From Gammaproteobacteria bacterium (GTDB taxonomy: Bacteria > Pseudomonadota > Gammaproteobacteria > Eutrophobiales > Eutrophobiaceae), in contig OZ242192.1 of the NCBI GenBank assembly GCA_965205955.1, positions 2,376,796 to 2,440,795 on the forward strand: 64,000 bases of DNA, given 5' to 3'. Shown in pieces: positions 1-42,023 of this stretch. The position numbers and the translations under genes are program-made. The notes beneath the pieces were generated by a model that did no database searches, had not been told where the DNA came from, and was given only the letters and a program-made list of their open reading frames with translations. The stretch's first letter is position 1. Each line of letters starts with the position of its first letter.

Positions 1-302
1 GATACCGTGCCAGCAAAGTATGACCGTTATAATGAAAATCACCTATGACAGGCACCTCGCATCCCTTTGCCGCCAGCCGCTCGCAAATAGGCGCAACCTG
101 TCTCGCCGCCTCATCGGTATTAACAGTGACGCGAACCAACTCCGAACCCGCCGCAGCAAGCTGCCGGATCTGCGTGACGGTTGAATTCAAATCAGCCGTA
201 TCGGTATTGGTCATTGACTGCACAACAACAGGATGACCGCCGCCCATGGCCACTGAGCCTACCTTGACAGAAACACTATCGCGTCTCTTTGACAGCGCAC
301 AC
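1..302 (-). CDS. ispG: 4-hydroxy-3-methylbut-2-enyl diphosphate synthase IspG, N-terminal part (gene continues beyond the window start)
   Basis: Minus-strand translation reads ...[94 protein letters not shown]. This is colinear with the E. coli IspG N-terminus ([29 protein letters not shown]...). The in-frame start is probably GTG at 302; an internal ATG lies at 247. Confidence 0.8.
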
Positions 303-594
303 ATTGAAGACATTGAGTAAGGAACCCGACTATTGAATATAGCCGGCAGTCTCAATGACCGCAGCCTGACTGTCAAGAAAACAGAGAAAAAACCAGGGAG
401 TGTAGTACGTAAACATATTCAGTAGTATAATCGGATCCCTGATAAACAAAAGATCTAAGGAGTCTCTCACATGCAAATACCAACGCACATTTGTTGCACC
501 GCTTGCGGCATCCTTGCTGCTGGCCGGATACCGATTTCCTGTTTATCCCTCCATCGGTCTGGCGATGGCGGGCAAAAATCGAGAGGAAACAGCG

Positions 595-1023
595 ATGGAA
601 ACAACCGTTCATAGCACGGCGATGAGCCGGAAACATTCCGCCCTCGTCGCCGTTGCAGGCGTAGCTCTCGCCCTTCTACTTGCCTTCATTCTGACACTTT
701 TACCGAAAGAGAAAGCCATTCTTGCGCTCGCGGTTTTTGTCGGTATGTTCAGCGGCGTTTATTTCGGCGTGGCGCTGTCGCCGACCGGCATCAAAAATAC
801 AGTGATGAACATCGCCATGGCGCTGATTTTTTTGGCGCTTGCATTTCTAGGGGCATGGCTTAGTCCGATGTTTTTCGCACTGGCGTGCTTTATGCATGCA
901 GCGTGGGATTTTGTCATCGGGCATCCCAAGGCACTCAACGAGCCGATTGCCCCGTGGTACATGCCGATATGCGTCGGCGCAGATATTGTCCTCGGCGTAT
1001 TCATCATCTTCTGGTTTTTCTGA
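595..1023 (+). CDS. small integral membrane protein of unknown function, about 4 TM helices
   Basis: ORF 514..1023 is strongly hydrophobic (LVAVAGVALALLLAFILTLLP, AMALIFLALAFLGAWL). The ATG at 595 is preceded by GAGAGGAAA, a Shine-Dalgarno-like sequence, at -7. Confidence 0.5.
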   Translation: METTVHSTAMSRKHSALVAVAGVALALLLAFILTLLPKEKAILALAVFVGMFSGVYFGVALSPTGIKNTVMNIAMALIFLALAFLGAWLSPMFFALACFMHAAWDFVIGHPKALNEPIAPWYMPICVGADIVLGVFIIFWFF

Positions 1024-1226
1024 ACGGCGCATCGCGGCGGCGATAGACAGCTTCATTCCAAATAACAATTTTTCCAGGATTGAGCCGTGACCCGGCGCAA
1101 GACACGGTCACATTACTCCGCAGACCGGAAACGATGAACCCCATTTCGACCGGGATACAGGAAAGGGATCCATTCCCGCCCAAAAAAAGCATATAAACAG
1201 TCCTGACCTTAAGTTTTAGGCAGAAT

Positions 1227-1284
1227 TGTGACTCCGATCACGCATAAAGGCATATGAATTATCCGATTTGTGAACCAAGTCACA
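1227..1284. promoter_or_regulatory. two tandem CRP/FNR-family-like palindromic operator sites
   Basis: Site 1 is 1227-1242, TGTGActccgaTCACg. Site 2 is 1269-1284, TGTGAaccaagTCACA, a perfect CRP half-site consensus. Their centres are 42 bp apart, about four helical turns. Site 2 is centred about 42 bp upstream of a predicted start site after a TAAAAT -10-like hexamer (1306-1311), which is class II geometry. Confidence 0.35.
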
Positions 1285-1635
1285 ACTTATTCTAAATATA
1301 TCGTCTAAAATTACTTACAGTATCCATATAAACATATATAGGTGCCTGCAAGATGTATTTTTGAGTATGAGTGCTTGGGATCGTATCTACCACTTCCCTC
1401 CTTCCTCCGGTAACAACGGTTTCAAGCACTTTTTTTTCAGCGGTTCAATACCCACCATTCAAAAAAGCTCCCGGATAATTAAAGAAAGAATCTGCACAGC
1501 CTGATCGAACCCTGCGCAGATCCGACAAGCCCCGAACAAACTCACTACCGAGTTTCCGGATCCTCTGCCATTTTGTCAATCCCGGCACGGTAAACGGAAT
1601 GGAAAGGGGGGGCACAGCACATTTTCTCGGACGCA

Positions 1636-1666
1636 AATAAAAAAGGGCGGCACCGCAGCACCGCCC
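1636..1666 (-). terminator. rho-independent terminator of the tracrRNA
   Basis: Minus strand GGGCGGUGC-UGCG-GUGCCGCCC forms a 9-bp stem (two G-U wobbles) followed by UUUUUUAUUU. On the plus strand the sequence is aaataaaaaagggcggcaccgcagcaccgccc. Confidence 0.6.
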
Positions 1667-1768
1667 TTGCACCTTTATTAAAGGGTTTGGCGCGAATCTC
1701 GAAGATTCCTTGTTAACGGACTAACGAGACCGCATTTCCTTGTGTGTGTTTGACATTCTATCAAGCAC
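1636..1768 (-). ncRNA. tracrRNA (trans-activating crRNA) of the adjacent type II CRISPR-Cas system
   Basis: The minus strand at 1749..1726 reads ACACACAAGGAAAUGCGGUCUC. This is perfectly complementary (22-23 nt) to nt 9-31 of the crRNA-sense CRISPR repeat GUUGCGGUGAGACCGCAUUUCCUUGUGUGUUACAAU. It is followed by GUUAGUCCGUUAAC, which resembles the S. pyogenes nexus UAGUCCGUUAUC. Two small hairpins follow (GAAUCUUCGAGAUUC and CCUUUAAUAAAGG). The last element is a GC-rich terminator hairpin with a U-tract. A TTGACG-N16-TATAAT promoter lies just upstream on the same strand. Confidence 0.6.
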
Positions 1769-1779
1769 AATCTTATTAT
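1750..1779 (+). promoter_or_regulatory. candidate cas9 promoter, arranged face-to-face with the tracrRNA promoter
   Basis: Plus-strand TTGACA (1750-1755), 18 nt, then TATTAT (1774-1779). This -10 occupies the same AT-rich hexamer region as the minus-strand TATAAT of the tracrRNA promoter. The cas9 ATG is at 1819. Confidence 0.3.
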
Positions 1780-1802
1780 ACGAATTCATTCTCTATCGTC
1801 AA
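1775..1802 (-). promoter_or_regulatory. sigma70-like promoter for the tracrRNA
   Basis: The minus strand has TTGACG (1802..1797), 16 nt, then TATAAT (1780..1775). The predicted start site is about 1768, roughly 18 nt upstream of the anti-repeat. Confidence 0.45.
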
Positions 1803-1818
1803 CTGTTATCTACAAAAG

Positions 1819-4800
1819 ATGGGAAAATTTACAACTCGGCTAGGTTTAGATCTCGGCACGGATTCCATCGGCTGGATGCTTTATCGGCTTGCCGATGGCG
1901 GCGAAATTGCGTCCGTCATCGGCGGCGGTGTGCGCGTTTTCTCGGAGGGACGCAACCATAAAAGTTTAGCTTCGCTAAACGCGGACCGTCGCAAAGCGCG
2001 GAGCATACGGCGCAATTTTTTCCGCAAATCGCAACGGCGCAACCGGTTGTTGCAATCGCTGGCAGAATTCGGATTGTTTCCCGCGAAAACAGAAAACGGC
2101 GAAATCATCCCCGATTACATCACTGGAAAAGCATTGGAAAAATTAGACCCGTGGCGATTGCGTGCGGAAGGAGCGGCAAGAGCATTGCCGCCGTATCATG
2201 TCGGTCGGGCGTTATTTCACTTGAATCAGCGGCGCGGTTTCAAAAGCAACGCCAAAACTGACGACGAGAGCGACAGCAAAGTCATCGGCAAAGCGCGCGA
2301 AAAATTGCGCGAGGCGCGAGGCGAATTGACGGTAGGTCAATATCTTCACTCGCGTCGCCAAAACACCGACAGCCCCAGTCATGAACGCACTGTCCGCGCT
2401 CGCCCCCTCAAAGTAACCGCAAAAGGAGTGGGAGAATATGAGCCGCTGTATCCATTTCGGGACGACATCGCAGAAGAGTTTGACAGAATCTGGGACACGC
2501 AAAAAACCGCGAATCCCGATTTTGGAAAAACCGCAAGCGGCGAATGCGGACGCGAAATAATCCGCGCGATTATCGTCGACCAGCGCGACTTAAAACCGCC
2601 GATTGTCGGCAAATGCCCCTTTTATCCCGACTTGAATCGAGCGCCGATGGCGTTGCCGTCATTTCAACGATTCCGAATTTTCAACGATTTGAATCATCTG
2701 GAATACAGCGATGAAAACGGACTCCATCAACTGATCATCGATGAGCGCGAGAAGATTCTTGATTGGCTTTTGAGCAAGAATCGGATGTCCTTTGACGACA
2801 TGCGCGAGAAAATCCTTAAAAACGAAGGGGCGAAATTCAATTACGAAAAAACCATCCGGCTGAAGCGCAATAAGAATAAACCCGAAATAAGAGAGGGAGA
2901 GGAGAAAGCGCGCCGCAAAAGCATCAACGGCGACATCACCGGCTATAAACTCCGCAACGCTCTCGGCAAGCATTGGGGCGCGCTAAAATGCGAAAGCGGA
3001 CTTTTAGCAAGTCAGGATAAATTCGTCCAGATTCTTCTGGACGAAAGTGAGGAAACTGCGCGTAAAATTCTCACCGACTGGGGATTAAGCGAGGACGAAA
3101 TTACTGCGGCATTCAAGGTGACTGCAGGATTGCCGAAAGGTCGTGCGCGTTTTTCCGGCAAAGCGATTCGGGCGTTTATTCCATATCTGGAAAAAGGAGA
3201 TTTGCTCGGCGATGCAATTGACAATGCGCAAGCCGACGGAAAAATCGGCAAACGGCACACAGACGACGGCGGCAAAATTTACGACAAACTGCCGCGCTAT
3301 CAAGAGGTCGGGCGATTGCGTCATCTTTGCCTGCCGCGAGTCCCCGAAGACGAAGACAAACCGGAAAATCAACGCATTCCCAATCCGACCGTGCATGTCG
3401 GATTAAATCAAGTGCGCGCGGTGGTGAACGACATCATTCGCATTTATGAAATTGACAACAAATCGCTGCAGATTGCGCTGGAAATTGGCCGCGATTTGCC
3501 TGTCGGCGCGAAAGGTCGCAAGGAGCGCGAAAGAGAAAACTCGGACAACCGCGACAATAGCGAGCGCATCGCTGCGCGGCTGAAAGAATTCTCAAAATTC
3601 CGCAACATGGAGACATCTGACATAATCAAGCGCCACATGCACTACATTAAGAAATGGAAACTATGGGAGGAATTATCTAAAAATTGCCTTGACCGCAAAT
3701 GCGTATTTTGCGGAAAAGTTCAAATAACCGCCAAAGATCTCGTGTCGGCGGACAGCGGAATCGAAATTGAGCACATTCTTCCGTTTAAGGAAACGCTTGA
3801 CAACGGTTACATGAATTTAACTCTGGCCTGTCAGGCATGCAATCAGGCAAAGAGAAAGAATGACCCCTATGCGGCGTTTGGCCACGATGAATCCCGCTGG
3901 CTTGGAATTCGCAAACGCGCGAGCAAATTGCCGCATGCCAAATTCGGGCGTTTTGACAAAGGCGCGTTGGAAAAGCGCAAATTTGACAAGGATTCTTTTT
4001 TGCCGCGTCAACTGCCAGAAACGCAGTATATCAGCCGTGCGGCATTGCATTATCTGCAGGCGATTTGTCCGGATGTTTATGTCATGCCGGGACGACTGAC
4101 TGGATTACTGCGAAGCAAATGGGGACTTAACAGCATCCTCGCGGATTTTCGGGGCGACGACAAAGATAAAAACATCAGCACTAAAAACCGCGAAGATCAT
4201 CGCCATCATGCGATTGACGCGGCGGTCGTCGGCGCAACGACGCGAAGCGTTTTGCAAAAAGTGGCGACGGCGGCAAATACCGGAATGGACAGTGAGCACT
4301 TGTTTTCCGATAAGGTGCCATGGCCTACCGCCGGAGAGGAAAATTTTCGGCGGATGGTGAAATCGGCAATTGGCAAAATTGTCATTTCGCACAAGCCGCG
4401 CCGTCACAAACAGGGCAAACTGCACGACGAAACGGCCTATCGCGTTGGTAAACAAGATGGCCCTTGGACTGTTGTATCCCATCACATCCCCATTTCCAAA
4501 TTGACCGCGCAAGCTCTCTACGAGGAAACGTCAGAAAACGAATTCGCGAACACATGGGGAAAAGCCGCAAAACTCCGAGACCACAAAAATTTGCGGCGGC
4601 GCCTGATTGATTGGAAAACAGAATTCGGCGGCGATTTCAAAAAAGCTCTTGAAAAAGCGCGCGAATGCGGAATCCGCCGAGTTGAGGTAATGGAGCGAAA
4701 ACGAGCAGATTCGCTAATCCCAATTCGCCATAAAGGAAAAGGCGGCGACGGCGGAGTCAAGCATTACTTACCCGGCAGCAATTGGGCGTACGAAATTCGC

Positions 4801-5199
4801 CTTTGCCACAACGGACTATGGGAAGGCAAAGCCATCACCACCTTTGAAGCAAACGCTCGCAAAGCAGCCGATGAGACATCAGAGCCGCTCCCGCTTGTCA
4901 TGCGTCTACACCGCGGTGACATGGTGATTTTGCAAAACCCTAATGACAATGACTTGAAGAAATTGAGCAAGAAACACGGCTCAATAATCGGATATGTCAC
5001 TCAAATCAGTGACGGTTATGTCGCAATTGCAGAACATACTGATGCGGTTCCGGATAGTCGGAGTCGAAAAAATGACAACAGCCAGAGCCGCTTCATCTTT
5101 CTCACTTCGGGAGATGTTTTTCGAACACGAAAAGTGCGGAAGATAGATGTCAGCCCGGCGGGATTAATTCGGAAAAACCCCATTCCCACAAACCAATGA
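1819..5199 (+). CDS. cas9: Cas9 endonuclease, about 1127 aa, RuvC and HNH motifs intact
   Basis: RuvC-I: MGKFTTRLGLDLGTDSIGWML. Arg-rich bridge helix: RRKARSIRRNFFRKSQRRNRLL. RuvC-II: LQIALEIGRDL. HNH: IEIEHILPFKETLDNGYMNLTLACQACNQAKRKND, with CVFCG and CQAC zinc-ribbon cysteines. RuvC-III: HRHHAIDAAVVGATT. The gene overlaps the cas1 start (ATGA). Confidence 0.92.
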   Translation: MGKFTTRLGLDLGTDSIGWMLYRLADGGEIASVIGGGVRVFSEGRNHKSLASLNADRRKARSIRRNFFRKSQRRNRLLQSLAEFGLFPAKTENGEIIPDYITGKALEKLDPWRLRAEGAARALPPYHVGRALFHLNQRRGFKSNAKTDDESDSKVIGKAREKLREARGELTVGQYLHSRRQNTDSPSHERTVRARPLKVTAKGVGEYEPLYPFRDDIAEEFDRIWDTQKTANPDFGKTASGECGREIIRAIIVDQRDLKPPIVGKCPFYPDLNRAPMALPSFQRFRIFNDLNHLEYSDENGLHQLIIDEREKILDWLLSKNRMSFDDMREKILKNEGAKFNYEKTIRLKRNKNKPEIREGEEKARRKSINGDITGYKLRNALGKHWGALKCESGLLASQDKFVQILLDESEETARKILTDWGLSEDEITAAFKVTAGLPKGRARFSGKAIRAFIPYLEKGDLLGDAIDNAQADGKIGKRHTDDGGKIYDKLPRYQEVGRLRHLCLPRVPEDEDKPENQRIPNPTVHVGLNQVRAVVNDIIRIYEIDNKSLQIALEIGRDLPVGAKGRKERERENSDNRDNSERIAARLKEFSKFRNMETSDIIKRHMHYIKKWKLWEELSKNCLDRKCVFCGKVQITAKDLVSADSGIEIEHILPFKETLDNGYMNLTLACQACNQAKRKNDPYAAFGHDESRWLGIRKRASKLPHAKFGRFDKGALEKRKFDKDSFLPRQLPETQYISRAALHYLQAICPDVYVMPGRLTGLLRSKWGLNSILADFRGDDKDKNISTKNREDHRHHAIDAAVVGATTRSVLQKVATAANTGMDSEHLFSDKVPWPTAGEENFRRMVKSAIGKIVISHKPRRHKQGKLHDETAYRVGKQDGPWTVVSHHIPISKLTAQALYEETSENEFANTWGKAAKLRDHKNLRRRLIDWKTEFGGDFKKALEKARECGIRRVEVMERKRADSLIPIRHKGKGGDGGVKHYLPGSNWAYEIRLCHNGLWEGKAITTFEANARKAADETSEPLPLVMRLHRGDMVILQNPNDNDLKKLSKKHGSIIGYVTQISDGYVAIAEHTDAVPDSRSRKNDNSQSRFIFLTSGDVFRTRKVRKIDVSPAGLIRKNPIPTNQ

Positions 5200-6119
5200 C
5201 CGGGCGCATTGTTGAAATTGCCGAGGGCGGACGGCATCTCTCGCTGCATCGCGGATTTATGGAAGTGCGCCACAACGATGAATTGCTCGCGCGAATTCCG
5301 CTTGATGATTTGCTTGCCGTTATCGTCAGCGGACACGGCTGCACGCATTCTTCCAATCTTATCGCCGCTTTCGCCGAGCGCGGAACGCCTTTTATTATCT
5401 GCGCCGCAAACTATCAGCCGATTGCATGGACGATTCCGCTGTTCGGCCATCATGCGCAAAGCGCGCGAATGCAGGCGCAGGCCAGAGCTAAACTTCCTCT
5501 CAAAAAACGGCTGTGGCAGCAAGTTGTCCGCACCAAAATCAGCAATCAGGCCGCAGTGTTGGAGGTATTCGGTAGTGGCGGCAACCGATTGAAAAGGCTT
5601 TCAACTAATGTGCGCTCCGGAGACCCGTCTAATGTGGAAGCGCAAGCTGCAAGATATTATTGGAGTGCACTGTTCCCTGACAGATTCTCGCGCAATAAAA
5701 ACGGCGGAGGCATTAATTCTCTCTTGAATTACGGCTACGCGATAATTCGCTCGTGCGTCGCAAGAGGCGTGACGGCGGCGGGATTACATCCGACGATTGG
5801 CATTCATCATCGTGGGCCGACCAATCCAATGTGTCTTGTGGACGATCTGATGGAACCGTTTCGTCCGCTTGCCGATTGCGTTGTTCGGAATCTCATCGAC
5901 AAAGGAATCCATGAAATCAGCCCCGATGTTAAAAGGATTCTCGCTTCGCTCGCCGTGATGGACATGCCCGGTCCGTCCGGCGTAACAACTTTGTTTACCG
6001 CCGCCGCACGGTTTGCCACTTCACTCGCGCAAATTCTAATGGGCGAAAATTCATCTTTGGAAACGCCGCAAATGCCGACACCGCTTACGCTGTTGTCAGT
6101 TGCCGACGGCAATGACTGA
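5196..6119 (+). CDS. cas1: Cas1 integrase
   Basis: 307 aa with typical Cas1 motifs: EAQAARYYW, SLLNYGYAIIRSCVARGV, HPTIGIHHRG and CLVDDLMEPFRP. The start ATG overlaps the cas9 stop. Confidence 0.9.
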   Translation: MTGRIVEIAEGGRHLSLHRGFMEVRHNDELLARIPLDDLLAVIVSGHGCTHSSNLIAAFAERGTPFIICAANYQPIAWTIPLFGHHAQSARMQAQARAKLPLKKRLWQQVVRTKISNQAAVLEVFGSGGNRLKRLSTNVRSGDPSNVEAQAARYYWSALFPDRFSRNKNGGGINSLLNYGYAIIRSCVARGVTAAGLHPTIGIHHRGPTNPMCLVDDLMEPFRPLADCVVRNLIDKGIHEISPDVKRILASLAVMDMPGPSGVTTLFTAAARFATSLAQILMGENSSLETPQMPTPLTLLSVADGND

Positions 6120-6228
6120 AGGCTAAGCAGCTATCGTATAATGCGGCATCGTTTGCGCCCCCCCGCATGATGACTGAAATATTGAGTAGCTATCGGATAA
6201 TGTGGATGTTTGTGATGTTTGAGACCTG
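6113..6228. repeat. diverged 58-bp tandem duplication of the cas1-stop/cas2-start junction
   Basis: Unit 1 (6113-6170) is atgactgaaggctaagcAGCTATCGtATAATGcgg.... Unit 2 (6171-6228) is atgactgaaatattgagtAGCTATCGgATAATGtgg.... Unit 1 retains only a 4-codon relic, ATGACTGAAGGCTAA, overlapping the cas1 stop. Unit 2 supplies the cas2 start, MMTEILSSYR. Confidence 0.6.
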
Positions 6229-6504
6229 CCGGTGGGAACGAAAAAAGAACGCACTCAGGCAACCAGTTTTCGCAATCATCTGCTCGGTCTTGGGTTTGAA
6301 ATGGTGCAGTTTTCTGTTTATTCGCGTTTCTGCTCAGGTAAGGAGCGCGTGGAAACCTTGGCGCAACAAGTCGCCGCGAATCTGCCGGTGGGCGGTAAAG
6401 TGGACATCCTTTCATTTACCGACAAGCAGTACGAAAACATTATCAGCTTTGAAGGGCGCACACCGCAAACGCGTGAAAAACCGCATCAACTCACGCTGCT
6501 ATGA
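6167..6504 (+). pseudogene. cas2: cas2 with a frameshift (net +2/-1 nt near 6221-6226), or a sequencing error in an otherwise intact cas2
   Basis: Frame A from ATG 6167/6170 gives MMTEILSSYRIMWMFVMFE.... Frame B from 6223 gives DLPVGTKKERTQATSFRNHLLGLGFEMVQFSVYSRFCSGKERVETL...GKVDILSFTDKQYENIISFEG. Together they are colinear with S. pyogenes Cas2 ([47 protein letters not shown]...[22 protein letters not shown]). Deleting GA from tttGAGAcctg restores ATG TTT GAC CTG CCG, which is M F D L P. In frame B a TGA at 6220-6222 sits just upstream of the first Cas2-like codon. Confidence 0.6.
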
Positions 6505-6577
6505 ATCGAATCGCCGCGTTTTTTGGAAGGGAATCGCCCTCGTTTTTCCCGCAAATTCAATGGGATAGACAAGGACG

Positions 6578-7802
6578 ATTGTAACACACAAGGAAATGCG
6601 GTCTCACCGCAACGGAATCCCGGAATTAGCAAAGCACTATTTTATTGTAACACACAAGGAAATGCGGTCTCACCGCAACTTTGCTCCAGATACCTGTATA
6701 TAACTGGTTAATTGTAACACACAAGGAAATGCGGTCTCACCGCAACTGACTCTCTTGAGGACCGCCGACGCGCCGAATTGTAACACACAAGGAAATGCGG
6801 TCTCACCGCAACGCTTTGGCGATACTGGCAAGAGCGTGATAGATTGTAACACACAAGGAAATGCGGTCTCACCGCAACCTAAAATGCAACTGATAGGGAT
6901 GCTGTGTCATTGTAACACACAAGGAAATGCGGTCTCACCGCAACTTGAAATGTCACAACCCCCGCAAGTATTATATTGTAACACACAAGGAAATGCGGTC
7001 TCACCGCAACGCCGGTGTTGCGTTCGAGCGCCTGCATTTGATTGTAACACACAAGGAAATGCGGTCTCACCGCAACGATATTTCGATGCTGAAGGTGCCT
7101 CGGCTGATTGTAACACACAAGGAAATGCGGTCTCACCGCAACTGATTTGCAAAATGAGGTAGATCGTTGTATATTGTAACACACAAGGAAATGCGGTCTC
7201 ACCGCAACACTCACTCTCTTCAATCTTGCTCTGTAGTCATTGTAACACACAAGGAAATGCGGTCTCACCGCAACAGCAACAATCGTGCCAGAAAACCTAA
7301 AAGTATTGTAACACACAAGGAAATGCGGTCTCACCGCAACGGCGCATTATTGAAAGCCCGCACGTGTAACATTGTAACACACAAGGAAATGCGGTCTCAC
7401 CGCAACTGAAGAAACCTACTACCAAAAAATACGTCAATTGTAACACACAAGGAAATGCGGTCTCACCGCAACGAAAAGAGATTTGCCCCAAAGCGGACTA
7501 TCATTGTAACACACAAGGAAATGCGGTCTCACCGCAACTAATAGGTGTTATGCGCCATGCCTGTGGGTATTGTAACACACAAGGAAATGCGGTCTCACCG
7601 CAACCACAAACAACGGCTTATGTCAAGTTTTGCTATTGTAACACACAAGGAAATGCGGTCTCACCGCAACAGTCATTGAGTCTCAGGCAGTAGCTATCCT
7701 ATTGTAACACACAAGGAAATGCGGTCTCACCGCAACAGTCATCAAGGCCGGGCTGGCCACCCTTTGATTATAACCCACAAGGAAATGCCACTTCACCGCA
7801 AC
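6578..7802 (-). CRISPR. CRISPR array of 19 repeats (36 bp) and 18 spacers (30-31 bp); the terminal repeat (7767-7802) is degenerate; transcribed on the minus strand from promoters embedded in each repeat
   Basis: The plus-strand repeat ATTGTAACACACAAGGAAATGCGGTCTCACCGCAAC starts at 6578, 6644, 6711, 6777, 6843, 6909, 6975, 7041, 7107, 7173, 7239, 7305, 7371, 7437, 7503, 7569, 7635 and 7701. A degenerate copy, attataacccacaaggaaatgccacttcaccgcaac, is at 7767. The reverse complement GTTGCGGTGAGACCGCATTTCCTTGTGTGTTACAAT ends in an extended -10 (TGnTACAAT). The N. meningitidis II-C repeat does the same (GTTGTAGCTCCCTTTCTCATTTCGCAGTGCTACAAT). Confidence 0.95.
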
Positions 7803-7896
7803 CGGTGCAATGTTAGCCCTTGAGTGATAATCAGCTTTGCACCGAACCCGACTGCGGCTATAATAGGCCGTTAATTCTCTGTGGCCTGGACCGATA

Positions 7897-9357
7897 ATGC
7901 GTATAACTGAAGAAGCATTGACCTTTGATGATGTATTGCTCGTACCGGATTATACCGAGATCCTGCCGCGTGATGTGTCTTTGCGGACTCGGCTGACGCG
8001 ACGGATAGAGTTGAATATCCCGCTGATCTCCGCGGCAATGGATACCGTTACCGAATCGGGAGTCGCGATAGCGCTGGCTCAGGAGGGAGGGATTGGGATC
8101 ATTCATAAGAATATGAGCCCGGAGATGCAGGCGGAAAATGTTCGGCGAGTCAAAAAATATGCAAGCAGTGTGATCAAGGATCCGCTCACGGTTGGGCCCT
8201 ATACCAGTATCCAGGAAGTTATCGATTTAACCCGGGAAAACAATATCTCCGGTGTGCCGGTTGTGGATGGCGAAGAGCTGGTTGGCATTGTTACCAGCCG
8301 TGATTTCAGGTTTGAAAAGAAGACAAGCGATCCGGTCAAAAATATTATGACGCACAAGAAAGACCTGGTGACAGTGCGGGAAAATGCCACCAAGGATAAA
8401 GTGCAGGATTTGCTGCACCGGCATCGGATTGAAAAAATACTTGTAGTCGATGACGAGTTTCGGCTGGCCGGGCTGATTACGGTCAAGGATATGCAAAAGG
8501 CGTCCCAATATCCAAATGCCTGTCTGGATGAAGCGAGGCGTCTCCGTGTCGGTGCGGCGGTGGGTGTAGGCAAGGCATCCATGGAGCGCGTCGAACAATT
8601 GGTTGACGCGGACGTTGATGTGATTGCGGTGGATACGGCACACGGGCACTCGAAGGGGGTGCTGGACATGGTCAAATGGATCAAGGCGCAATTTGAAGAT
8701 ATTCAGGTAATCGGCGGGAATATTGCCACCGGAGAGGCGGCGCTTGCATTGGCGGATGCGGGAGCGGATGCGGTCAAGGTGGGTATAGGTCCGGGGTCAA
8801 TTTGCACTACCCGTGCCATCAGCGGTGTCGGCATACCGCAAATATCCGCGATAGCGAATGTTGCCAAGGCCCTCAGGGAAAAGGCGATCCCGATAATTTC
8901 GGATGGAGGAATACGCTATTCCGGTGATATTGCCAAGGCCCAGGCTGCCGGCGCCTATAGTACGATGATCGGCGGTTTGTTTGCCGGATGCGAGGAGGCG
9001 CCGGGCGAGATCGAGCTTTATCAGGGCCGCTCCTACAAGTCTTACCGCGGCATGGGGTCTGTTGGGGCAATGTCACAGCAGCATAATTCATCGGATCGTT
9101 ATTTTCAGGAAAATGATGAGATTGAAAAACTGGTTCCGGAAGGGGTGGAAGGCCGGGTGCCTTATAAAGGGCCGCTGGCGGCAATAGTGCATCAATTGCT
9201 CGGCGGTGTCAGGGCGGCGATGGGCTATACGGGTTGTTTGACCCTGAAAGAGATGCGGGAAAAGGTGCGTTTCGTTCGTCTGACCGGGGCGGGCTTCAGA
9301 GAAAGCCATATCCATGACGTTACGGTTACCAAAGAACCACCGAATTACAGAATTTAA
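7897..9357 (+). CDS. guaB: IMP dehydrogenase
   Basis: 486 aa, colinear with E. coli GuaB: [23 protein letters not shown], two CBS domains and the C-terminal KEPPNYRI. Confidence 0.95.
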
Positions 9358-21035: not shown

Positions 21036-21648
21036 CGGCATATAATGGGATATATATGGTTATATTGGCATATAAATTGTTATAAATTACTATAAACTTT
21101 GAGACAGACATCATGGAAAACCCGTCAAGGCGGTCAGCGCACGGCATATAATGGGCTATATATAGTTATATTGGCATATAAATTGTTATAAATTACTATA
21201 AACTTTGAGACAGACATCATGGAAAACCCGTCAAGGCAGTCAGCGCACGGCATATAATGGGCTATATATGGTTATATTGGCATATAAATTGTTATAAATT
21301 ACTATAAACTTTGAGACAGACGTCATGGAAAACCCGTCAAGGCGGTCAGTGCGCGGCATATAATGGGATATATATGGTTATATTGGCATATAAATTGTTA
21401 TAAATTACTATAAACCTTGAGACAGACATCATAGAAAACCCGTCAAGGCGGTCAGTACGCGGCATATAATGGGATATATATGGTTATATTGGCATATAAA
21501 TTGTTATAAATTACTATAAACTTTGAGACAGACATCATGGAAAACCCGTCAAGGCGGTCAGCGCACGGCATATAATGGGCTATATATGGTTATATTCATG
21601 TATAAATTACTATAAGTACACAAGATGGAAGTCATGGAAAACCCCTTT
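21036..21648. repeat. tandem repeat of five complete 106-bp units plus a partial sixth, carrying the promoter, RBS and first codons of the downstream ATPase gene
   Basis: Units start at 21036, 21142, 21248, 21354, 21460 and 21566. Each unit contains cggcaTATAATggg, TTGGCA-N17-TACTAT and gacatcATGGAAAACCCGtcaagg...taa. That last element is a 12-codon mini-ORF, MENPSRRSAHGI*. The sixth unit has a roughly 10-bp deletion and runs into the real gene start, atggaagtcATGGAAAACCCC. In the fifth unit the mini-ORF ATG is mutated to ATA. Confidence 0.9.
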
Positions 21649-40562: not shown

Positions 40563-42023
40563 CTATTGGGCTGTTAGTATCACCTTGATGGAATTTATTA
40601 TTGCTTTGATGTAATCGCTGAATGCTTCCGCATGCTTTCCCCGGGCGAATTTTGCGCCTCCCCGTTTGGTGTATGCCTGGATATATTGCGGGTCGATTGC
40701 AATCGCCTTGCCGTAGTCTTCAATGGCTTCCGCATGCTTTTGCAAAGCGGATTTTGCAAGCCCGCGCTTGTTATATGCCCCCGCATCCCGGGGGTTGATT
40801 GCAATGGCCTTGCTGTAGTCTTCAATGGCTTCCTCATGCTTTTGCAAAAATGATTTTGCAAATCCACGGTTGTTGTATGCCCTCGCATCCTGGGGGGTGA
40901 TTTCCGTTGCTCTGGTGTAGTCCTCAATGGCTTCCGCATGCTTTTGCAAAGCGAATTTTGCAAGTCCACGGTTGTTGTATGAGTCTGCTTCCTGCGGATT
41001 GATTTCAATTGCCTTGTTGTAGTCTTCAATGGCTTCCGCATGCTTTTGCAAAAATGATTTTGTAAGTCCGCGAATGTGGTATGCCCGGGCATCCTGGGAG
41101 TTGATTTCAATTGCCTTGCTGTAGTCTTTAATGGCTTCCGCATGCTTTCCCAAAGTCGATTTTACAAGTCCGCTGATGTGGTATCCTGATTCATCCTCTG
41201 GATTGGTTTCACTTGCCTTGCCGTACCCTCTACGGACTTCCGCACGCTTTCCCGAAGCAGATTTTTCATTGCCCCGGTTGTGGTGTGCCTGGGTACCTTT
41301 CAGGGCGATTTCAATTGCTTTTTTGTAGTCTTCAATGGCTTCCTTAAAATTTTCCAAAGCAGATTTTGTGTCGGCCCGGCTGGTGTATGCCTGGATATAT
41401 TGCGGGTTGATTTCAATTGCCTTGCTGTAGTCTTCAATGGCTTCCGTATATTCTTCTAAAGAATATTTGGCATTGCCCCGGTCGTGGTATATCTGGGTAC
41501 CTTGCGGGTCTAATTCAATTGCCTTGTTATAGTCTTCAATGGCTTCCGCGTGATTTCCCAAATCAGATTTTGCATTGCCCCGGTTGTGGTATGACCGGGC
41601 ATCTTGCGGGTTTAATGCAATTGCCTGAGTATAGTCATCAATGGCTTCCGTATATCTTTCTAAATAATATCTGGCAACACCCCTGTACTTCAATTGCTTT
41701 ATTTTTATGATTCGCCTTGTTATTGCGCCAACTAAAAGGATGAGTATGATACAGCTCAATATTACCCGATTGGATTTTAAATACTGTATTATTGGTTGGA
41801 TGTAGCCCTTGCTTGCTTCCGGATGTTTTCCCAAATCAGATTTTGCATTGCCCTCATTATAGAGTACCCCGACATCTTGCCGGTTGTTTTCAGCCAGTGG
41901 CTGGACCGGTGAAATATTGAGTGCCGCTCCTCCCCCGAAAAACAGGATGATGACCAGGGCACATGGCAAACCTGACCGGGGGAAAACATACCTAATAGAA
42001 GAAAAAACCTCATTCATTCGCAT
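40563..42023 (-). CDS. tetratricopeptide-repeat protein with an N-terminal signal/TM segment; internal 102-bp DNA-level repeats
   Basis: More than 10 consecutive TPR units (...AYHIRGLTKSFLQKHAEAIEDYNKAIEINPQ...). The nucleotide repeats of gcttccgcatgcttttgcaaa... are nearly identical, which suggests recent intragenic expansion. Confidence 0.7.
   Translation of the reverse strand: MRMNEVFSSIRYVFPRSGLPCALVIILFFGGGAALNISPVQPLAENNRQDVGVLYNEGNAKSDLGKHPEASKGYIQPIIQYLKSNRVILSCIILILLVGAITRRIIKIKQLKYRGVARYYLERYTEAIDDYTQAIALNPQDARSYHNRGNAKSDLGNHAEAIEDYNKAIELDPQGTQIYHDRGNAKYSLEEYTEAIEDYSKAIEINPQYIQAYTSRADTKSALENFKEAIEDYKKAIEIALKGTQAHHNRGNEKSASGKRAEVRRGYGKASETNPEDESGYHISGLVKSTLGKHAEAIKDYSKAIEINSQDARAYHIRGLTKSFLQKHAEAIEDYNKAIEINPQEADSYNNRGLAKFALQKHAEAIEDYTRATEITPQDARAYNNRGFAKSFLQKHEEAIEDYSKAIAINPRDAGAYNKRGLAKSALQKHAEAIEDYGKAIAIDPQYIQAYTKRGGAKFARGKHAEAFSDYIKAIINSIKVILTAQ

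Follow-up and report, generated by a model that had tools for sequence, protein, structure and literature searches.

Genes and array of the CRISPR-Cas locus

The window, which here means the whole 64-kb stretch of DNA that was analysed, carries on its plus strand a cas9 gene encoding a protein of 1126 aa (1819..5199; TIGR01865, E = 7.6e-152). It is followed on the same strand by a cas1 gene of the NMENI (type II) subtype (5196..6119; TIGR03639, E = 3.9e-68) and by cas2 (6200..6504), whose reading frame is broken near 6221-6224 by 2 bp that the sister locus L020 lacks, so that adaptation may be defective in this genome. A CRISPR array on the minus strand (6578..7803) comprises 19 repeats, 18 of them identical and 36 nt long and the cas-distal one degenerate, and the repeat reads GUUGCGGUGAGACCGCAUUUCCUUGUGUGUUACAAU in the crRNA sense. 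The RuvC-I, HNH and RuvC-III motifs of the Cas9 are intact, and the solved structures closest to it by sequence are those of type II-C Cas9s. Neither csn2 nor cas4 was found at the locus in the ORF list, in family scans or in the gene calls of the syntenic L020. As csn2 and cas4 are absent and only cas9, cas1 and cas2 are found, the system is a type II-C CRISPR-Cas by gene content.

All 18 intact repeats carry TGnTACAAT, an extended -10 box, at their 3' end, and each repeat was scored as a promoter on the minus strand. Relatives differ in the central bases of the hexamer (TACAAT, TAGAAT, TAAAAT, TAAATT, TATAAT) but retain the TG, the TA and the last T (TGnTAnnnT). The minus strand of the array probably gives rise to the crRNAs, which would start from the extended -10 promoter within the 3' end of every repeat. 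The type II-C crRNAs of Neisseria meningitidis (Nme) start from promoters within the repeats, at a point a few nucleotides into each spacer (PMC12477760).

The array was also searched for targets, as a check on the orientation of the crRNAs and the side of the PAM. No protospacer was matched among 50,697 phage records by blastn, nor were three 22-nt spacer seeds matched in IMG/VR, and the comparison of all spacers of 10 arrays with all fetched loci returned only chance matches of 16-17 nt. Separately, a palindrome within the repeat (nt 3-8 with nt 12-17) was considered as a conserved crRNA hairpin or terminator and discarded, as it was 81.7% paired and was equalled by 237/500 shuffles.

A very probable tracrRNA gene divergent from cas9

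Upstream of cas9, the minus strand between 1637 and 1768 very probably holds a tracrRNA gene with the canonical type II-C architecture. A promoter of the form TTGACG (1802-1797), N16, TATAAT (1780-1775) is present at 1775..1802 with 11/12 matches, its -35 box lying 17 nt upstream of the cas9 ATG. The primary transcript predicted by the promoter and terminator scans, and by the homologous gene of 12 further loci, would be of ~130 nt (1637..1768), with a start near 1768, ~7 nt past the -10 box, and an end in a U-tract. An upstream position divergent from cas9 is among the tracrRNA arrangements listed in PMC6546382.

From its 5' end, the predicted transcript begins with a leader hairpin (1746..1768), identified by cofolding and by comparison of the upstream regions. 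This hairpin lies within an insertion of ~25 nt that is found only in the window and in L020; elsewhere among the relatives, the predicted start is very close to the anti-repeat. The leader was also considered in connection with a self-targeting long-form tracrRNA of the S. pyogenes tracr-L type, an idea that was dropped as the leader contains no repeat-like segment able to pair with the anti-repeat.

The anti-repeat (1726..1747), which is the upper-stem strand ACACACAAGGAAAUGCGGUCUC, is a perfect complement of repeat nt 9-30 over 22 nt. A U8:G wobble extends the duplex to 23 contiguous pairs, whereas nt 31 is a U-C mismatch; the length of 22-23 nt given in the earlier note was thus reproduced, but not the extension of the perfect match to nt 31. 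The anti-repeat contains, at 1726-1744, the sole off-array copy of the repeat core in the 64-kb window, for which shuffles expect 0.00 copies. A better anti-repeat elsewhere had been named as an objection to the tracrRNA, and no other off-array copy of the repeat core exists within these 64 kb.

Next to the anti-repeat comes the segment GUUAGU (1720..1725), of which G1725 can wobble with U8 of the repeat and UUAGU is unpaired in the cofold. It is followed by CCGUUAAC (1712..1719), which pairs with repeat nt 1-7 (GUUGCGG) leaving one bulged U (1716). An AAG junction (1711-1709) leads to the hairpin GAAUCU-UCG-AGAUUC (1708-1694), both together covering 1694..1711 and supported by the cofold and by a fold test, and then to a second hairpin, GCGCC...GGUGC (1669..1693), supported by the cofold and by alignments A1 and A3. 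The gene ends with an intrinsic terminator (1635..1668) made up of a stem (1668-1643) of 11 pairs including the flanking A-U, of which 7 are G-C, and a subsequent U-tract. The 3' part of the tracrRNA folds better than 200/200 shuffles (z = -3.97).

Much of the description in the earlier note was therefore borne out. A minus-strand tracrRNA divergent from cas9, with its own promoter and terminator and a length of ~130 nt, had been proposed, and the promoter, the two short hairpins (1708..1694 and 1693..1669) and the GC-rich terminator hairpin with its U-tract were all found in place, the gene having homologues in 12 loci.

With the nexus hairpin and the terminator on the minus strand and nothing comparable on the plus strand, transcription of both the tracrRNA and the crRNAs from the minus strand is the only consistent reading. 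A functional plus strand, in which the segment would belong to the 5' UTR of cas9 or encode a tracrRNA that pairs with plus-strand crRNAs, is extremely unlikely. A promoter-like site at 1750-1779 does fit this alternative in that it would start transcription ~30 nt upstream of cas9, but such a start lies downstream of the anti-repeat and would leave the segment outside the mRNA. Moreover, the interval from 1747 to cas9 has no plus-strand terminator or conserved structure; it is the minus strand that carries the conserved nexus and terminator, and the extended -10 box that every repeat has on that strand is preserved in relatives.

When the window was scanned with Rfam, no tracrRNA family was detected at E <= 10 in 1-9000 and no family reached its gathering score in the whole window. 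A literature search found no paper on the guide RNA of this Cas9 clade.

Pairing between the repeat and the tracrRNA

The cofold of repeat and anti-repeat that had been put forward in the earlier note as a check was run with RNAcofold, and its outcome went against the scheme proposed there. Repeat nt 1-7 paired with CCG(U)UAAC of the tracrRNA: G1-U2-U3-G4 with UAAC, and C5-G6-G7 with CCG, one U being bulged. A 5-nt bulge, UUAGU, followed on the tracr side, U8 wobbled with G1725, and repeat nt 9-28 ran on into a perfect duplex. This lower stem was present in the minimum-energy dimer of 7/7 loci folded, and holding repeat nt 1-8 unpaired cost 3.8-6.2 kcal/mol in each of the six loci tested. The same relationship can be read in the DNA, where the complement of the repeat, ...GGTCTC-A-CCG-CAAC, is to be compared with ...GGTCTC-GTTAGT-CCGTTAAC in the tracr gene.

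From this pairing it follows that GUUAGUCCGUUAAC (1725..1712) is the bulge plus the lower-stem strand, that is, a continuation of the reverse complement of the repeat. The earlier note had located this string correctly and had called it a nexus like that of S. pyogenes; the string is there, but the real nexus is the next hairpin. Two further claims did not survive, namely that GUUGCGGU is left unpaired beside the spacer and that the duplex has no bulge: repeat nt 1-7 form a covarying lower stem with CCG(U)UAAC, and the 5-nt bulge on the tracr side has counterparts of 4-7 nt, or a small internal loop, in relatives. The unusual look of the RNA, with an unpaired 5' end of the repeat, no bulge and a foreign nexus, arose because the reading stopped at the end of the perfect match.

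Conservation of the duplex in homologous loci

Homologous loci were collected through the Cas9 protein, and all of the comparison loci were metagenome assemblies. They comprised L001, a Nitrospirales metagenome-assembled genome with a Cas9 76% identical to that of the window, L020-L026 (87% to 41% identical), L027 and L028 (38% and 34%), and L029 (Ferrovibrio) and L030 (a betaproteobacterium), both with ~35% identity. Loci L002-L019, mostly Bacteroidota Cas9 loci of 26-29% identity obtained from Cas9 peptide-pattern scans, were not useful for the comparison of tracrRNAs. A tracr homologue was found on the minus strand directly upstream of cas9 in 12/12 of the further loci (L001 and L020-L030, with Cas9 34-87% identical), and the tracr genes of the window and L020 were 100% identical.

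For the counting of base pairs, the repeat of each locus was fused to the tracr of the same locus. Over the whole duplex in 8 loci, 96.6% of the cells were paired, compared with 33-45% in slid controls, and compensatory changes were found at 21/29 pairs. The 22 pairs of the upper stem were paired in 95.5% of the cells in 8 loci, with changes on both sides at 18 pairs. In the lower stem, counted in 10 loci, 70/70 cells were paired (slid controls, 10-70%), and only 1/500 shuffles was as good. Both sides had changed at 3/7 of its pairs, each time in a single locus: C5:G to U:A in L027, and G6:C to U:G and G7:C to A:U in L028. One-sided changes were observed in L026 (G7:C to G:U) and in L030 (G4:U to A:U). 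The other 4/7 pairs showed no compensatory change, three of them being invariant and one having the one-sided change of L030.

The segment between the two stems varied among loci (GUUAGU, UAGU, GUUGU, GUUAAGU, ACUUG, a 2x2 internal loop, or none), while its flanks were constant. A length that varies freely between fixed flanks is the behaviour expected of a bulge. Among relatives, the lower stem and the nexus were the best-conserved parts of the tracrRNA, the same two that are best conserved in tracrRNAs according to PMC6546382. The cofolding and the covariation in 10 loci show that the tracrRNA pairs with the repeat in the canonical layout of lower stem, bulge, upper stem and nexus.

These data also bear on the idea that the segment resembling the repeat has no function, being either an orphan repeat in decay or left over from an array rearrangement, and that promoter and terminator match by chance. 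Anti-repeats originate from repeats, and an orphan copy in inverted orientation would have a similar appearance. Nevertheless, the whole unit of promoter position, anti-repeat, lower stem, AAG junction, nexus hairpin and terminator is conserved upstream of cas9 in the 12 further loci, which come from metagenome-assembled genomes of Nitrospirales and of alpha- and betaproteobacteria, the anti-repeat tracks the repeat of its own locus, as the compensatory pairs reveal, the terminator covaries, and between the window and L020 the gene has not diverged at all. A functionless remnant is in consequence scarcely credible.

A further alternative is the architecture of the earlier note, in which only repeat nt 9-31 would pair, nt 1-8 would be single-stranded and GUUAGUCCGUUAAC would be a nexus of the S. 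pyogenes type. Its 10-mer UAGUCCGUUA does occur unchanged in the S. pyogenes scaffold, and a 2-bp mini-hairpin (C1726:G1717 and G1725:C1718) could form and is 92% paired where present. However, this mini-hairpin shows no covariation and its column is missing in 3/8 loci. The lower stem is paired in every cell counted, has the three compensatory changes and appears in every minimum-energy dimer. One of the two stem pairs would be a C-C in the S. pyogenes register. L023 and L025-L030 have lost the 10-mer but keep G(N)UAAC-AAG, and a shared stretch of 10 nt or longer with the S. pyogenes scaffold turned up in 54/5000 shuffles of the tracrRNA (~1%). Furthermore, the element lies within the hybrid, not 1-3 nt past it as described for nexuses (PMC6546382). 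Taken together, this architecture is very improbable, and the resemblance of the 10-mer is treated as a coincidence.

Nexus, second hairpin and terminator

The hairpin that follows the AAG junction, which takes the place of the nexus in the canonical layout, showed a compensatory change from A:U to G:C in L001 and L023 in the pair counts on alignment A1. A hairpin directly after AAG was present in the dimer of every relative folded (L001, L021, L023, L025, L026 and L027), although these hairpins differed in sequence, as exemplified by CGAAAAUUCG and CGAUGAUUCG. RNAalifold on a 9-sequence alignment did not recover the nexus because of indels within the hairpin, and the nexus is assigned from the dimer cofolds and the A1 pair counts.

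The second hairpin (1693-1669) was not conserved in relatives, and its loop contains an insertion that the window shares with L020 alone. The terminator, in turn, had compensatory changes at 7/10 pairs in the RNAalifold consensus of 9 loci.

Comparison with known guide RNAs

In a survey of dual guides, the spacer-adjacent nucleotide of the repeat was paired in 96% of cases (Faure et al. 2018, PMC6546382). [quoted passage not shown] Compared with the generic type II tracrRNA of PMC6546382, all modules are in the canonical order, and the one minority trait is that the lower stem starts with G:C, where G:U is usual.

Among the known systems closest to that of the window is that of N. meningitidis; the two share the gene content cas9-cas1-cas2-array, the NMENI-type Cas1, and a 36-nt repeat with GUUG at its start and an extended -10 box at its end, TGTTACAAT in the window and TGCTACAAT in Nme, where the box is the repeat-embedded crRNA promoter (PMC12477760). 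As a positive control, the published Nme sgRNA (PMC9674691) was folded, as two halves, by the same method, giving a lower stem from repeat nt 1, an internal loop, an upper stem, an AA junction and a nexus, which is the known architecture. The earlier note had set the pairing in the window against that of N. meningitidis; this contrast disappeared, as the cofold of the Nme sgRNA gives the same layout from repeat nt 1.

The likeness extends to the 3' part, in which AAGG-CCGUCU-GAAA-AGAUG-UGCCGCAA of Nme resembles AAGG-AAUCU-UCG-AGAUU-CGCGCCAA of the window, both with the form AAGG, a hairpin (xxUCU...AGAxx) and then a GC-rich ...CAA. In contrast, the Cas9 of the window is only distantly related to that of N. 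meningitidis (E ~1e-39 to Nme structures). The lower stem of the window has 7 bp, begins with G:C and has one bulged nucleotide that is conserved, whereas that of Nme has 8 bp and a G:U first pair. In the window the bulge is one-sided, with 5 nt on the tracr strand, the perfect upper stem is unusually long (22-23 bp), the terminator region differs, and there is a 5' leader of ~20 nt.

With the S. pyogenes tracrRNA, whose nexus is GGCUAGUCCGUUAUCA, the likeness consists of the common 10-mer UAGUCCGUUA. The string of the window lies inside the repeat:anti-repeat hybrid and the S. pyogenes nexus lies past it, the stem register of the latter cannot form in the window, and only the closest relatives retain the motif.

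The motif G(N)UAAC-AAG is common to Cas9 loci of metagenome-assembled genomes of Nitrospirales and of alpha- and betaproteobacteria. Together with the G:C first pair and the single bulged nucleotide, it may define a guide-RNA family of its own.

Overlapping candidate promoters of the tracrRNA and cas9

A candidate promoter for cas9, TTGACA-N18-TATTAT, was found on the plus strand at 1750..1779 with 11/12 matches. Its -10 hexamer (1774-1779) overlaps that of the tracrRNA promoter (1775-1780) by 5/6 positions; the overlap pointed out in the earlier note is thus real, and it is partly conserved. The -35 box of the tracrRNA promoter, TTGAC(A/G), was located 17-19 nt from the cas9 ATG in the window and in L001, L020, L021, L022, L024 and L025, a spacing that holds for the close relatives in which the scan found the promoter.

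On the plus strand, a full -35/-10 promoter was detected only in the window and in L020, because its -35 sits in the insertion of ~25 nt that separates the tracr -10 from the anti-repeat. A plus-strand hexamer resembling a -10 box was found at -45..-48 from the cas9 ATG in 5/7 close lineages (window/L020, L021/L022, L024, L025 and L026), its sequence being TGTTATTAT in L021/L022, TGCTATCAT in L024, TGCTATAAT in L025 and TGATATTAT in L026. In the four lineages other than window/L020 it was mostly of the extended TGn type. When the same position was compared, no such hexamer was present in L001, L023, L027 and L028. The plus-strand promoter has apparently been rebuilt in this genome, by loss of the extended TG and gain of a new -35 through the 25-nt insertion.

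Back-to-back -10 boxes that overlap to this extent could make transcription of the tracrRNA and cas9 mutually exclusive, providing a switch or a dosage control in addition to the tracrRNA gene itself. The recurrence of the plus-strand -10 at -45..-48 in the five lineages agrees with this proposal, as does the fact that those relatives mostly have an extended TGn -10 while the window, without the TG, has a perfect -35 at 18 nt. Against it, the plus-strand -10 is missing in four loci (L001, L023, L027 and L028), and an A/T-rich -10 box often resembles a -10 on the other strand, so the overlap may be a by-product. Mutually exclusive transcription is consequently an unlikely, if conceivable, addition to the tracrRNA gene. 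A combined proposal, in which polymerase would occupy one promoter at a time and so toggle or couple the synthesis of tracrRNA and cas9, with G(N)UAAC-AAG as the mark of a separate guide-RNA family, is somewhat more doubtful still.

Proposed function of the RNA

For the tracrRNA gene itself, the proposed sequence of events is the following. A sigma-70-type promoter (1802-1775) would drive an RNA of ~130 nt ending at the intrinsic terminator (1668-1635), and this tracrRNA would pair with each repeat from the spacer-adjacent nucleotide on. Repeat nt 1-7 (GUUGCGG) and CCG(U)UAAC would form the lower stem, next to which UUAGU would bulge on the tracr side, and repeat nt 8-30 would form the upper stem with the 22-nt perfect anti-repeat. 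Past the AAG junction, the nexus hairpin, a lineage-specific second hairpin and the terminator hairpin would follow. [quoted passage not shown]

Biologically, the RNA of the window is an ordinary tracrRNA that no curated Rfam model covers. The practical value of the analysis is a corrected design of the guide RNA for an uncharacterised type II-C Cas9 of 1126 aa. Cas9 proteins bury the lower stem and depend on it. This stem would probably be lost if GUUGCGGU were trimmed or CCGUUAAC taken for a nexus. The earlier note had described the locus as giving a directly usable sgRNA scaffold; all of the needed parts are present, but judging from the sequence the scaffold would be usable only if repeat nt 1-7, the UUAGU bulge and CCGUUAAC are kept. 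The sgRNA proposed under the lower-stem model is N22-24 followed by GUUGCGGUGAGACCGCAUUUCC-GAAA-GGAAAUGCGGUCUCGUUAGUCCGUUAACAAGGAAUCUUCGAGAUUCGCGCCAAACCCUUUAAUAAAGGUGCAAGGGCGGUGCUGCGGUGCCGCCC-UUUU. As the tracrRNA and repeat of L020, a nearly identical sister locus, match those of the window while the C-terminal domain of its Cas9 has strongly diverged, one scaffold may serve two enzymes with different PAMs.

Divergence of Cas9 between closely related loci

Comparison of the window with its nearest relative locus, L020, in bins of 200 nt revealed 94.5-100% identity over most of the locus, with a single exception in bin 2601-2800 (85%), and complete identity (100%) of the predicted tracrRNA gene (1637-1768, minus strand). 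Over the final ~800 nt of cas9 (4401-5199), identity to L020 was just 60-76%, and the corresponding Cas9 residues 801-1126 were 80, 60, 52 and 77% identical in successive bins. Judged from these alignments, the two systems diverge in the C-terminal domain of Cas9, presumably the PAM-interacting one, and are otherwise identical in both Cas9 and guide, an arrangement that resembles the domain swaps between the N. meningitidis Cas9s Nme1 and Nme2.

The window and L020 were also the only loci with an insertion of ~25 nt between the -10 box of the tracrRNA gene and the anti-repeat (1746-1774, minus strand). This insertion supplies a hairpin in the 5' leader of the tracrRNA, and the plus-strand TTGACA of the candidate cas9 promoter also comes from it, completing that promoter.

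CRISPR repeats and array

In the crRNA sense, nt 3-17 of every repeat of the array (6578-7803) form a palindrome, UGCGGU-GAG-ACCGCA, and UUUCCUU comes next; a terminator scan flagged this element as terminator-like, and it shares the repeat with an extended -10 box. In free pre-crRNA, this palindrome would compete with tracrRNA pairing. As its conservation across 10 loci was no better than chance, the palindrome is probably incidental.

The cas-distal terminal repeat (7768-7803) is degenerate, with 7 mismatches, but the TATAAT at its 3' end (crRNA sense) is still perfect. The decay of this repeat suggests that new spacers enter the array at the cas2-proximal end.

Two unrelated tandem-repeat regions were also detected in the window, one at 21036-21596 (106-bp unit, 5.3 copies, 95% identity), in which 20-bp AT-rich sub-repeats are embedded in the unit, and another at 40690-41650 (102-bp unit, 9.4 copies, 75% identity).

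Adaptation genes

In cas2 (6200-6504), a 2-bp insertion at ~6221-6224 was identified by comparison with L020, the window reading TTTGAGACC where L020 has TTTGACC in otherwise near-identical loci. The insertion splits the ORF, leaving the N-terminus in one frame and the remainder (6232-6504) in another; either the assembly is wrong at this point or the frameshift is real, in which case adaptation would be defective.

One sample yielded three related loci (L021, L022 and L026), flanked by an frr/tRNA region and a radical-SAM gene, in which cas9 is accompanied by a tracrRNA and an array of 9-13 repeats, with neither cas1 nor cas2. They are interference-only type II-C loci.

Distribution of the tracrRNA motif

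The lower-stem/junction motif of the window tracrRNA recurs upstream of cas9 in two Proteobacteria whose Cas9s are only ~35% identical, a Ferrovibrio metagenome-assembled genome (L029) and a betaproteobacterial one (L030), as CCGUUAAC-AAG and CCGCUAAC-AAG, respectively, with one bulged nucleotide each. The use of tracrRNAs with this motif by such distant Cas9s suggests that the guide RNAs form a family extending across phyla.
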